This document shows positions 7,454 to 63,670 of a stretch of 64,000 nt of DNA, one piece after another. How positions within the stretch are numbered: position 1 is the first letter of the stretch; the number at the start of each line of letters is the position of its first letter. The stretch lies in assembly GCA_964016885.1 (NCBI GenBank), contig OZ024749.1, positions 44,826,001 through 44,890,000 of the forward strand. The letters run 5' to 3'. The notes under the pieces are model-generated. The model worked only from the letters and a program-made list of their open reading frames with translations, was not told the origin of the DNA and did no database searches. A program made the position numbers and the translations under genes. Origin of the DNA: Eledone cirrhosa (taxonomy: Eukaryota).

Positions 7454-7615
7454 ATATTTATTAAAATAACAGATTAAAGTTTAAGCAACGAATCGTTGCT
7501 TTCACCTTTAATCTGTTATTTTAATAAATATTTGCTCTAGGGTTCTTATATATTTGATATATATTTATACTTATCGAGTCCTCTTTGGATTTCAGTCTTC
7601 ACATTTATTATTAAA
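7454..7615 (+). mobile_element. PLE-like fold-back cassette, family C (hammerhead 3' half)
   Basis: Perfect 26-bp IR 7454-7479/7506-7531; minus strand reads GAAA-GCAACGATTCGTTGC-TT-AAAC; homologous to 20763-20941 and 13966-14050; flanked by (TA)n. Confidence 0.6.
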
Positions 7616-7634
7616 ACTATATATATATATATAT

Positions 7635-7792
7635 CAAAGTTGGTGTGGTAAGATACCAGGTGGACCATAAAGCACCAGAGTACTCAATACTTAGGATAGT
7701 AGAGTAGTATGAAAAGAGTCAGGACCCTGACGGCTGTCGGATCTAGCTGTTGAAACGGCCGGAGCTCAGCCATCGGGGTCCTGATTCTTTCC
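7635..7792 (-). mobile_element. PLE-like fold-back cassette, family A2 (degenerate)
   Basis: Homologous to 31429-31643 and 63505-63670; inverted arm contains GAAACGGCCGGAGCTCAGCCATCGGGGTCC; next to (TA)n. Confidence 0.7.
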
Positions 7793-8005
7793 ACACACAC
7801 ACATATATATATATATATATATATATATATATATATATATATATATATATATATATATATATATGTATATGTGTAGATGTATGTGTATGAATGAAATTGG
7901 TCGATTTTGCAAAACACGTACGACCCTATGTCCCTCCCCTCAGATATATGTAATCGAATCCTAATAAGGTCCAGGTTAAATTTAATTGTTTCATGAGAGT
8001 ATTAT

Positions 8006-8039
8006 GGTCGGCCTATGAACCTTTTAGCTGACACTCGTA
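8006..8039. mobile_element. Solo mariner-type TIR
   Basis: GGTCGGCCTATGAACCTTTTAGCTGACACTCGTA resembles the reverse complement of the 4233 MITE end. Confidence 0.45.
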
Positions 8040-8480
8040 TATATTGCGTTGTTGATATTGTTTATTCAAGTTATATTTATCTAGACAGCAATATTTAATT
8101 TATGTGTTATTTTAACTCAATATATTTATATAGTGTCGTATTGATTATAGCAGACATCTGATACATGCTTCCTTCAGAATTGTTTCCGCCGTATAAGGTT
8201 CCGTGTTAGTTTGTATTTTTACTTCGTATGATATCAAGTTTGTAGTGAATTAAAATTCTTTATTTTTGTTATATTTAGGCTTGACACACTTGGCTGCATG
8301 CTGTTAGGATACTTGGGCTCACTGGGACTTATGATTTCGTAAATTTCGGGAGATACCTAAAAAGGAGTAAGTCATGGCTGAATTACACAATTAGTGGATT
8401 GGATGAAAATAATAACATATATATATATATATATATATATATATATATATATATATATATATATATATATATATATATAT

Positions 8481-8555
8481 GAAAGAGGGTGGACTATAAC
8501 GCACCAGGGTACTCAATACTTAGGGTAGTAGATTTGGTATCTAACTCTTTTTCTA
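8481..8555 (-). mobile_element. Family A extension fragment
   Basis: GGACTATAACGCACCAGGGTACTCAATACTTAGGGTAGTAGA matches the family A long arm; lies between (TA)n tracts. Confidence 0.65.
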
Positions 8556-59068: not shown

Positions 59069-59410
59069 TTTCTTAATTAGCCACAGGGGCACAAAAGAAG
59101 GGGACAAATACAAAGGGGAAGTTTACATACAATAAAAACGAGTAAAATGTTATCACAAATGCAATTTAAAAAGTTAGTCGATTTTCCCCAATAGGGGGAG
59201 ACGGTTTATATGGGTAACACATACCCCCGAAAAAATGTGCAACCCTCATCTCCAGGAGTACGAAGAGTCTGTACTCCTTTCCTCTCCTCCTCCTTTTCCT
59301 CAACCTACAGGCTGATATAGAGAGAAGGCCCATTCACTCGGGCCATTCTCGCCACTTTCACCCACCTTTCATAAAACTTGCTGGGGTACAGCACCTCTCT
59401 CTCCATCCTG
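59069..59410 (-). mobile_element. 3' end of a probable L1/Tx1-like LINE within (GATA)n
   Basis: ORF end RMEREVLYPSKFYERWVKVARMARVNGPSLYISL* (59305-59409), a ~235-nt 3' UTR, and (GATA)n on both sides. Confidence 0.55.
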
Positions 59411-61470
59411 ATAGATAGATCGATAGATAGATAGATAGATAGATAGATAGATAGATAGATAGATAGATAGATACATAGATAGATAGACAGACAGATAGAT
59501 AGAAAACCTAGTAGACTATGTCACATGTATGTATATCATTTTGTCTAGTCTTAGGAGAATTAATATAAAGAACCGGAAGACATACTAAATTTGAAATATC
59601 TCTCTTTTCAACAATAATCTAATCTGAAGTATTCTATAGACGAAGAGACGAGGAACAAAAATTGATTTATAGAATGTCTTGATACATTTCCAATGAAAAT
59701 AAGATCTGCAAATAAAATCAACATTACAATTTTATAGCAGCTTCATAGGAATATGCTGTTGTTGAATATAGCTGAGTGTCTTGCTTCACAATCTTAATCT
59801 AGTTTCATGGTGTCTTCCCGCCAAAAACCTTGTTAAAATTTCGTTAGCGTTTCACAATCGGTCGATGTATGTCGCTTCTTCTCTCTATTGTTCTCCAGAA
59901 ACTTGGCAACGCGCAAGATGAAAACAAATAATGCTAGCAATATAAATATATATGTATATATAAATACGTACATACACACACACACATATATATATATATA
60001 TATATATATATATATGTGTGTGTACATATATATGTATATATATATATATATATATATATATATATATATATATATATATATATATATATATATACATATA
60101 TATAAATTCATGTAGATATTTATATATATCTTCCTATCTATCTATCTATATGTATACATGAGACCGTTATTGTTCCAACCAGTTTAGGCACCTTCAACAA
60201 TCTCTCTCTTTACACACACACACGCACACACAGTCATATATATATATATATATATATATATATATATATATATATATATATATATATATATATATATATA
60301 TATAAATATGCATCTATACAAATGCAATTTTAACATAACAACAATCAGCATTATCTGATAAAGAACTCAATATATATATTAAGGTTAACCGCACATGTGT
60401 ATAGATAAATGCTTATGAATAGTATCACGTGTAACTGTTCGTGTATACGTGCTAGCATTAGTGTATATATTCATTTGGAATTCCTTCTGATTTTCTGTTT
60501 AAAATCAGCATACCTTGCGTATATATAAATATATATATATATATATATATATATATATATATATATATATATATATATATATATATATATATATATATAT
60601 ATATAAATATATATATATATATACATATATATATATATACATATATATATATATATATGTATATATATATATATATATATATATATATATATATATATAT
60701 ATATATATATATATATATGTGTGTGTGCGTGTGTGTGTATATATATATATATATACACACACACACACACATACACACATATACATATACATATATATAT
60801 ATATATATATAATACATACATATATATATATACATATATATATATATATATACACGCACACACATATATATATATATATATATGTATATATATATACATA
60901 CATACATACATATATACATACATACATACATACATACATACATACATACATACATACATACATACATACATACATACATACATATATATATATACATACA
61001 TTTATATCATTTTGTATAATCTAGATGGTGTTGAGTGTTTAATGGAATTAATATTTCCTCGCTGATATATTTCCACCTCAACGGATTTCTGGTTTTATTT
61101 CCGTTCGTCCGTTTATTTCAATGTATTGAAATGTTATGAAATTGATTTGCCTCGAAAGATCCACAACTGAAAATAAAGAAGACAATTATCTTGAACGTAT
61201 ATGTTCGAGACACATACTTTAAATATATACTCTTAAGTTAACACCCGCTTATACACATATACAAATATATGTGTGCACACTTCCATATTAAGAAATATAA
61301 ATCCACCTAGAGTAACATTCAAATATCTACACAGTCTCACTGAAATTATATAGACTTTGGAAAATAAGTCTTGTGTTTGTTTCCTTATTGCTCGGTATAT
61401 CTGTCTAGCTTTTTGCTCTATCTATTCAACTGATCATTTTAATCTTTCGATTCCATCCTTACACTTACAT

Positions 61471-61645
61471 ACACACATAAACATAGACATATAAACATAC
61501 TCACGCGCACACACATACTCGCACATACACACATAAACATAGACATATAAACATACTCACGCACACACACATACTCGCACATACACACATAAACATAGAC
61601 ATATAAACATACTCACACACACACATACTCGCACATACACACAAA
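61471..61645. repeat. ~54-bp tandem repeat, 3 copies
   Basis: CACACATAAACATAGACATATAAACATACTCAC...CATACTCGCACATA repeated. Confidence 0.85.
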
Positions 61646-62517
61646 CATATATATATATGCAGTCCGTGGAAACCTGCTTTGACCAGATGCCATAAATATA
61701 TGTAATTTCTTTATTATTTTAGCATACGTAACAGACATATCTCATAGACTGATTTTTTCTACACACCTCTTTTATCAGACATACACCTACCACCCTGACC
61801 TTCATACTCTTAGATTCTCCCTCTTTCTTCTACTATCTTCATAATATATTTTTAGTCAGTAATAGGTTTTTACAGCCATATATATTTCTGCCTTATCTCG
61901 ACTATTTATATGAAAATAAGATTGTTTATTTTTTCTCAGTTATTTCTATTTTCACTGTGATATTGCAAATAATTATTACGTCATCTATACAAATGGACTG
62001 TACTTTAACTTAATGGGACAATTGTTTTTACAGTGTCACCCTGAATCTCCCTGAAATTCTCGTTAAGTGTACACATAATCTGGCAATGGCTCAGCTAATT
62101 AGAAGTTATTTTCACATACAGGTTGTACCGTTCCTTTAACAAATCTCGGCGAAACCTATGGAAGTTTATCCACATGCACTTAATAATTATTTCAGTTAGA
62201 ACCTTAGGATTTTATAGTTTCCTGGTGCATTCCAGATGCATGTCTATTTCTCCAGCATGGTTATGTCTAGCGTTGATATGATCTGCCAAGAATATTCAGG
62301 TTGTATTCAATAACCTCGTCTTTGGTCTACTATGATTTATATTTTATTTTCAAATAGTTTTTAATAAATCATTTTTCATTAGTGTCTAACAATTCGTTTT
62401 GTTTTTGATTATCATTACAGCGATACGACGTGATACGACGAGATACGACGAGAATCGCTTCTTTTCTGCGTACTTCTATTTCGGGTACGCATTTTGTAAT
62501 TATTGTCATGTTAGTAA

Positions 62518-62938
62518 GGACGGTTGATTGGCAGTATCGGTAGAGGAACGGACGCCATGCTTTTCAACATAGAGTTACGACCCTTTATGATCTGAGTTCA
62601 AATCCCGTCGAAGTTAACTTTGCCTTTCATCCTTACAGGGTCGATAAAATAAAGTACCAGTCACGTACTGGGGTTTATTTAATCGACTTTCCCCTCCCCC
62701 AAAATTACTGGCCTTGTGCCTATACTAGAAATTATTATTACAACGAGAGGTGGATTGACAGTATCAGTACAGGGTCGGACGCCATGCTTTGCAGAAAAGA
62801 GTTACGGCTCTTCATGGTCTGAGTTCAAATCCCGCCCAGGTTAACTTTGCCTTTCATCCTTACAGGGTTGATAAAATAAAGTACCAGTAATACACTGGGT
62901 TAATTGCTGACCTTGTGCCAAAAGTAGAAACAATTATT
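62518..62938 (+). mobile_element. Nested SINE pair (long form 62518-62740, short form 62749-62938)
   Basis: Inner TSD ATTATTACAACGAGA at 62733-62747 and 62933-62947; outer direct repeat 62448-62517/62942-63000. Confidence 0.88.
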
Positions 62939-63504
62939 ACAACGAGAATTTCTTCTTTTCTGCGTACTTCTATTTCGGGTACGTATTTTTAGGTTAGTAA
63001 ATTTTTTAGTAATTCTTTCTCCGGGTTTCAATTGACGTTCGACTATTATTTTATTCAGGATTGTGAAAGAATTTCCATTGTATTTTTCTTTGTGTCTTCC
63101 CGTTGTTTGCCGTACAATTTTATAATATTATTCATGATAAAGACAATCTTTTTCAAGTCTTTGATGCCCAGGTTTGCGCTTTTTGTGTGTTATGTCTTTG
63201 TTAATTTCTATATTTCTATCGACAATATACATTTACGACAATAGGGAAATGTATTGATTTAACAAAGTTTATAGTAATTTCACCCGTCATATTATTGTCA
63301 TTTTCATATATACGACCTTTAGAATTTTCTATATATAAATATTTCTCTGATTTTCTCGTGTTAATATTTTCTTTATCTGTTCATTCTGGTCAGTCTTCTG
63401 TCCGTGACTAAGGTTTATTTATTATTCGTAAACTGACACCTTTTTACAGTATAATATTGACATTATTGATGAAGGTTAAACACACACACATATATATATT
63501 TATA

Positions 63505-63670
63505 AAGGAAAAGTGTCAGTACCGACAGTTGAGCTCCGGCCGTTTGGCGAAACGGTCGGAGCTCACCCGTCGCGGTCCTGACTCTTTTCCTATTACCCAC
63601 TTTACTACCCTAAGTATTTAGTATTTGGTGCGTTATGGTCCATCTTGTTCCTTACCACACTTCCTTCGTT
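63505..63670 (+). mobile_element. PLE-like fold-back cassette, family A2
   Basis: Imperfect palindrome centred just before GAAACGGTCGGAGCTCACCCGTC; extension to CCTTCGTT-(TA)n. Confidence 0.75.

Follow-up and report, generated by a model that had tools for sequence, protein, structure and literature searches.

Fold-back cassettes at (TA)n runs of Eledone cirrhosa as ends of Hydra-type Penelope-like elements, probably made by double priming on a capped RNA

The 64,000 nucleotides (nt) of Eledone cirrhosa contig OZ024749.1 analysed here (positions 44,826,001 to 44,890,000; this whole stretch is called the window) contain short fold-back cassettes, most of which lie beside (TA)n runs. Our results leave next to no doubt that these cassettes originate from Penelope-like elements (PLEs): they are the pseudo-long terminal repeats (pLTRs), together with a tail, that form the ends of six PLE families. 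We consider it probable, at roughly 0.7, that they are made by double priming on a capped sense RNA, with both copies running off the pLTR start. In a two-armed cassette the order is (TA)n, inverted arm, junction, arm and (TA)n, with a tail of 65–99 nt on one arm. The tail is found on a single arm in all 13 tail-bearing two-armed cassettes of the window, and the common layout described in an earlier note on this DNA, with a tail-type extension on one arm, holds in every one of them. The same note had counted about 17 cassettes of six families at one per 4 kb. Six families remain, and the count is now 21 cassettes or fragments between 7458 and 63669, or one per 3.0 kb, as detected by self-BLAST of the repeat-masked window and by BLAST of natural longer copies against it. 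The letters A to F are our own and may differ from those of the earlier note.

Parent elements

Elsewhere in the genome the ends of all six families are joined to open reading frames (ORFs) encoding a reverse transcriptase (RT) and a GIY-YIG domain; no ORF related to the six families is present in the window. The parent of family B was reached by looking for B ends that are not followed by TA, which led to a locus with an RT and GIY-YIG ORF. An intact B element (L130) consists of a pLTR, the tail, an ORF of 719 amino acids (aa), a 3′ untranslated region (UTR) and a tail-less pLTR, with an inverted tailed copy in addition. An intact A element (L235) has the same layout, with an ORF of 708 aa between two pLTRs. 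The A and B proteins are 53% identical to each other, and both ORFs contain the motifs RWR, DKT, YRDD, CxCX5C, YIG, CxxC and CxH. Ends of the other four families join broken ORFs that are 28–55% identical to A or B in the matched stretches (C in L236 and L243, D in L221, E in L268, F in L249, L283 and L247); in the E locus the ORF starts immediately 3′ of the tail. Both RWR and DKT are present in the F pieces, DKT in C and RWR with a stop in E, and the D piece does not include that region. The CxCX5C linker occurs in A, B, C, D and F, the linker stretch of E was not recovered, and among the 88 aligned sequences 85 have this same linker. In A and B the GIY-YIG core contains a single cysteine and no CCHH. 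An alignment-based AlphaFold model (88 sequences) reached a predicted local distance difference test (pLDDT) score of 91.5, and its four best Foldseek matches are telomerase RTs; single-sequence folding of the protein gave a pLDDT of 32. Pfam and PDB sequence searches with the proteins gave no match. Of 8,000 database proteins scored against B, at least 2,054 have an E value of 1e-20 or lower, and nearly all of them are unnamed.

Partial tandem pLTRs with an inverted copy and an optional tail are seen in L130, L235, L236 and L243. The distance from pLTR to pLTR is about 3.1 kb in L130, where the 3′ UTR is shortened, and 3.3–3.8 kb in the other three. The PLE origin proposed in the earlier note is thus borne out, since every family links to a PLE ORF in the genome-wide search, and by their motifs the six families would be new members of the Hydra type. 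Exact matches to family markers number 32,899 for B, 27,455 for A, 1,809 for E, 434 for F and 138 for C genome-wide; these are arm counts obtained with patterns of differing strictness and not copy numbers. Identity among the B copies of the genome reaches 100%. Nested among Hydra copies at L153:2759-4710 and L238:3295-4863 is a second type of PLE, which has a DKG motif and a canonical GIY-YIG.

The six families target (TA)n, and this is supported by the positions of their ends. In the window, 28 of the 34 3′ ends of elements are no more than 12 nt away from a TA run (five or more TA units) as compared to a background of 5.7%, taken as the share of non-run positions (binomial p ~1e-29); the coordinates of these ends were set by sequence reading and checked against family references. 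The adjacency to (TA)n described in the earlier note is therefore well above background. The ends not beside TA are three ends of the E copies at 10850 and 14085, one end each of the cassettes at 20349 and 31432, and the right end of the family F cassette, which adjoins a CA repeat. In a genomic sample of B, 109 of 123 arms lie beside (TA)n against a background of 12.5%.

Cassette ends and their formation

In all six families the 3′ ends are bimodal and fall either at the pLTR end or at the tail end. The B sample, which comprises 59 regions taken in order along contig 1, each with an exact B marker, has 123 arms, of which 54 end at the pLTR end, all at one position, and 53 at the tail end. Among 42 short B fold-backs, 38 combine one tailed and one tail-less arm, and no case with two tails or with none was seen. 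When fold-backs from all fetched loci and families are pooled, a set in which some loci were picked via tail-bearing queries, 150 of 181 have one end of each kind, one has two tails, one has none and 29 are unclassifiable. Both arms belong to the same subfamily in 29 of 31 cassettes (12.5 expected). Junctions are mostly unique, with 37 different ones in 42 cassettes, and the commonest (four cases) is found in four different subfamilies. Same-subfamily arms and mostly unique junctions indicate that a cassette is put together when it inserts, and that a single RNA is probably its source. The best reading is that they are by-products of insertion and not self-copying units, and the single integration mechanism that the earlier note had assumed for all families finds support here.

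A few cassettes are chimeric: further hammerhead-bearing PLE families are joined head to head with B or C arms (L013, L017, L019, L022, L025, L046), and an F arm is joined to a B arm at G000:C1:171564326. Such cassettes require two different RNAs and imply that more than six families exist. In L011 and L152 long A or T runs fill a B-B junction and resemble untemplated or poly(A)-derived filler. A short purine-rich motif (approximately GAGTRC), similar in all six tails, lies 20–60 nt ahead of the tail end and is a candidate signal for protein binding.

At the 5′ side the arms stop at a fixed site. The start of 102 of the 123 B arms falls between −6 and +16 nt relative to the A of a YYAGT motif, the remaining 21 arms reach 37 nt or more upstream, and none stop in between. 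For A, C, E and F the stops were counted by eye on listings of 100 matches each. Among the matches listed, A has 36 short and 64 long arms, four of the short ones ending 3–8 nt upstream, E has 74 short, 22 long and 4 between, and the F arms are mostly short. Family D has 21 short arms, 8 long and 1 between (30 arms). The stop is a pyrimidine-purine step in every family, and in B, D and E a TATA-like box is situated 29–31 nt upstream of it. In the sections concerned, a TATA plus TCACT has been noted in the pLTR of the rotifer element Pen2a of Adineta vaga (PMC3846280), and a transcription start has been mapped inside the pLTR of Drosophila virilis Penelope (PMC2377424). The stop site very likely corresponds to a capped transcription start inside the pLTR.

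Arms ending at the stop often have one additional base. Genome-wide, 1,451 arms of family A end at +1 and are followed by a base that is not templated. Counted by eye in sense terms, among 100 matches listed of 2,076, the arms ending at +1 have as next base G in 47 cases, A in 18 and C in 11; among the long arms listed, point changes at the same site are G in 3, A in 6 and C in 15. In B an extra G is found in 48 of 84 arms at +1 as compared to 20 of 97 at +4 (Fisher p 6e-7; 16 and 3 long arms, respectively, dropped), and the difference persists by eye when cases explained by the other arm are dropped (25/41 vs 9/36, Fisher p 0.003). A scripted test on the fetched loci of all families pooled gave 13 of 28 vs 37 of 180 (p 0.007). 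Several junctions have an extra G on both arms with 0–2 bases between. In L1 insertions an untemplated 5′ G has been read as a copied cap, according to the part of PMC9341517 that deals with it. Regarding the state of the template, in E, the family in which this was counted, tailed arms ending within one base of the hammerhead cleavage site were 6 of 100 listed, by eye, and therefore the usual template would be uncleaved RNA. A few arms extend past the tail into the element body, which implies that full mRNA is used at least sometimes.

In the reading that we favour, the GIY-YIG domain would cut both strands of the (TA)n target, and one strand would prime at the tail end and its partner at the pLTR end, similar to what the anole element does in vitro. 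If priming takes place on the pLTR copy near the RNA 5′ end, both cDNAs would stop after 50–270 nt, the cap would be read as one extra base at run-off, and host end-joining would trim the two cDNA ends and join them head to head. Priming on the downstream pLTR would lead to long arms and full elements. The template may be the full mRNA, or else a short RNA transcribed from a 3′ pLTR or a solo pLTR.

There are several points that weigh against this reading. No clear TATA box is present at −30 in A, C and F, and the TATA-like box of B differs between its subfamilies. The stop of C is blurred, with about 7 of 100 listed arms ending within 30 nt upstream, by eye, and 38 of 171 B arms match 1–5 nt upstream of +1, which means that the starts are spread or that these bases are matched by chance. 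The excess of G in the scripted test comes from A and B (11/16), C, D, E and F giving 2 of 12; by eye C has the extra G without a clear excess, and in many E cases the base may come from the other arm, which leaves them ambiguous. An RT that favours addition of C at any run-off end would yield the same extra base without a cap. It is important to note that the samples come from exact-match patterns and are biased to young copies, and that the transcription start is deduced from DNA only. Finally, arms of the same subfamily would be expected just as much from snap-back, or from two RNAs of one active locus.

Snap-back, where a single cDNA folds back and self-primes, possibly on an antisense template, so that the first arm would be the DNA template of the second, has been proposed for rotifer Penelope in the corresponding part of PMC3846280. 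It would agree with the same-subfamily arms and with the palindromic filler seen at some junctions. The ends of the arms are harder to reconcile with it. The two arms end at independent positions, both can reach +1, each with its own extra G and 0–2 bases between, and in the long insertions L130 and L235 they are very unequal in length. Moreover, the tail-less end is precise to the base, and an antisense template gives no cause for a stop at a sense initiator motif. We regard snap-back as unlikely, and lean towards dual priming on one RNA in its place.

A stall of the RT at an RNA structure or processing site could also give a fixed 5′ end. The B stop lies in hammerhead loop II, where a weak AU-rich hairpin is predicted, and the stops of A and E lie at the 5′ strand of stem I. 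The position of the stop is nevertheless inside the hammerhead in B, at its edge in A and E and 30–70 nt upstream in C, D and F, and in each family at a pyrimidine-purine step. The RT reads through stronger stems downstream, and the extra G and the TATA spacing are left unexplained, which makes a stall very unlikely. Least probable of all is that the cassettes are self-propagating SINE- or retrozyme-like fold-back units (SINE, short interspersed nuclear element) or what deletions have left of longer insertions: the very high number of copies and their identity, a window without ORF and the possibility that short RNAs from a 3′ or solo pLTR promoter act as templates in trans would fit such units, but the junctions differ and the commonest is shared by four subfamilies, there are no tandem arrays in the window, the cassettes begin at +1 without the upstream box, and a deletion would not yield a fixed end with an untemplated base. 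Copying of whole cassettes is thus largely refuted. The earlier note had called the cassettes ORF-less relics or non-autonomous derivatives; they are without ORF in the window and derived from PLEs, but they are neither decayed relics nor a self-copying unit, because B copies are up to 100% identical, junctions are made anew and 5′ ends are fixed.

In retroviruses, minus-strand strong-stop DNA arises by priming near the capped RNA 5′ end and run-off at the cap. As a tentative extension of double priming on capped sense RNA, and one that we hold rather doubtful, Hydra PLEs may have a similar step: the RT would prime near the capped 5′ end, run off the cap and jump to the 3′ pLTR, and the stubs would be failed jumps. 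The jump to the matching stretch of the 3′ pLTR would rebuild the upstream pLTR. In B the 5′ ribozyme would be disabled because the start lies inside the hammerhead, and the 3′ ribozyme could fix the repeat end.

Window inventory and hammerhead motifs

The window has 31.6% GC and 206 TA runs. Its 21 cassettes and fragments (Table 1) belong to family A (three), B including the B2 subfamily (nine), C (three), D (one), E (four) and F (one).

Table 1. PLE-derived cassettes and fragments of the window.
Feature	Positions	Strand	Remarks
Family A fold-back cassette	7458..7617	both	tail on + arm; GAAA-stem III half only
Family B (B2 subfamily) fold-back cassette	7635..7792	both	tail on - arm
Family B tail fragment	8481..8539	-	
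Family C single arm without tail	10643..10777	+	full type I hammerhead core at 10685
Family E degenerate arm	10850..10925	+	full core at 10858; 3′ end not beside long TA run
Family B fold-back cassette	12303..12515	both	tail on - arm
Family A tail fragment	13967..14055	-	
Family E old degenerate fold-back	14085..14176	both	81% over 47 nt; without TA flank
Family D fold-back cassette	17060..17381	both	tail on - arm; full core on + arm (17291)
Family C fold-back cassette	20349..20742	both	tail on - arm; full cores 20530 (-), 20646 (+)
Family A fold-back cassette	20767..20937	both	tail on - arm
Family B fold-back cassette	23496..23705	both	tail on + arm
Family C tail and pLTR end fragment	28585..28722	-	
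Family E tail fragment	30080..30128	-	TA runs either side
Family B fold-back cassette	31195..31399	both	tail on + arm; 121-nt end 100% identical in 40/40 scored genome matches
Family B (B2 subfamily) fold-back cassette	31432..31641	both	tail on + arm
Family E tail fragment	33183..33261	+	
Family B fold-back cassette	49810..50004	both	tail on - arm
Family F fold-back cassette	51369..51665	both	tail on - arm (internally deleted); damaged core
Family B2 degenerate fragment	52764..52820	not assigned	
Family B2 fold-back cassette	63500..63669	both	tail on + arm

A full hammerhead core is present in 4 of the 21 window elements (C at 10643 and 20349, D at 17060, E at 10850). The A and B copies have the GAAA-stem III-NUH half or the tail alone, and the core of F is damaged. 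Genome-wide, CUGANGA cores with a short or palindromic stem III are found by sequence in C, D, E and F, so that the full core expected somewhere in the genome does exist. The statement in the earlier note that each family has a hammerhead or its half is partly right; the core of B has a U3-A8 swap and that of A is damaged. The swap occurs in 30 of 30 top B copies, and a few copies of a B subfamily combine C3 or G3 with A8. Covariation of U3-A8 is known from Schistosoma PLEs, as mentioned in the relevant part of PMC4209133, and the literature search found no activity data for C3U/G8A. In family A, the listed long copies and L235 have A at position 4, where type I needs U, and none of the long copies listed has a canonical core; it is likely that the family A hammerhead, judged from its bases, is inactive or weak. 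The predicted fold of B is a three-way junction (z −1.8 and −0.2, not better than shuffles), those of C, D and F are not the hammerhead fold, and hammerhead folding energies have z from −0.1 to −2.0, again not better than shuffles. An Rfam scan of the window gave no hammerhead among the best 150 of 390 matches, which were dominated by microsatellites. A search for the B core with a gap of up to 34 nt was discarded: its 22 matches were all junction artefacts, and it missed the target because the actual loop exceeds that length and the core is of the U3-A8 kind.

Three hammerhead-like cores that belong to none of the six families stand alone at 31885-31935 (+), 3945-3995 (+) and 55895-55965 (−); the last has no second genome copy and was excluded from the inventory. 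A SINE-like repeat of 190–230 nt has about 20 window copies by self-BLAST, 75–93% alike and some in inverted pairs (5922-6139, 11335-11833, 15246-15450, 21306-22304, 36674-36930, 48781-49211, 55409-55687, 56766-58580, 62513-62947), and is neither bound to (TA)n nor part of the six families. A tandem array of a 25-bp unit, in about 23 copies, occupies 15979-16560.

Relation to known systems

The Hydra clade of PLEs with a C-terminal endonuclease (EN+) was defined by Craig et al. 2021 (PMC8557442), and its elements are given there as shorter than about 3 kb. In the description of the clade in that paper we find much that is shared with the present families: a single ORF of about 710 aa with an RWK-type motif, DKT and the CxCX5C linker, a GIY-YIG core without the CCHH cysteine pair, the motifs CxxC and CxH close to the C end of the ORF, hammerheads, insertion into (TA)n, and ends in partial tandem and inverted arrangement. 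The clade is described as having few families, whereas here there are at least six with tens of thousands of ends. The tails are 65–99 nt as compared to the 30–40 bp given for PLEs, and the description of the clade in PMC8557442 makes no mention of a 5′ stop at a fixed site with an additional G.

In vitro target-primed reverse transcription by Poseidon of Anolis carolinensis (Frangieh et al. 2024, PMC11167929) is similar in that the tail lies between two internal RT start sites and that both strands of the target undergo cutting and extension. The target is AT-rich, and uncleaved RNA is the main template. Poseidon belongs to another clade and that work was done in vitro with defined RNA; in its sections on the reaction products no genomic double run-off class or cap mark is reported. 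Penelope of A. vaga and D. virilis shares with our families the promoter and transcription start inside the pLTR as well as the head-to-head inverted pLTR with an optional tail, as far as described in PMC3846280 and PMC2377424; the D. virilis promoter is internal and TATA-less (PMC2377424). The head-to-head junctions were read in PMC3846280 as antisense self-priming, while our data point to a sense capped template and argue against that reading.

Like the minimal PLE hammerheads in the account of Cervera and de la Pena 2014 (PMC4209133), those found here are of type I, lie in pLTRs and have a palindromic stem III. Pairs on opposite strands 100–700 bp apart are shared with them and with animal non-LTR retrozymes (PMC4209133, 10.64898/2026.07.22.740005), although the latter, as characterised in that second source, form head-to-tail arrays with whole hammerheads and the present pairs are head to head, often with half a hammerhead. 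Unlike retroviral strong-stop DNA, the copies proposed here would be primed by target DNA, made twice and integrated as they are; strand transfer is not demonstrated here.

The cassette layout, the hammerheads and the TA bias were already known. The fixed stop with its cap mark did not turn up in our literature search, nor did a one-tail rule this strict on such a scale; the search found no statement on the run-off and cap reading or on Hydra PLEs in cephalopods and had most subscription journals, Repbase and supplements outside its scope. How PLEs form head-to-head inverted pLTRs and tails, which sense the template has and what role the hammerhead plays are open in the papers cited here, and the discussion of pLTR origin in PMC2377424 sees no obvious mechanism. 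If true, run-off on a capped RNA would settle how PLEs make inverted ends, and a strong-stop jump would explain how pLTRs are regenerated, for which a mechanism has been missing. The very young stubs, tens of thousands in number, record the reaction at base resolution and point to a capped and uncleaved sense RNA on which priming takes place twice, which gives in vivo support to one in vitro study on a different clade. The stops would also map six likely PLE promoters, and A and B offer for biochemistry two intact and apparently recently active proteins. In this 3 Gb animal genome the little-known Hydra clade is seen to occur en masse.

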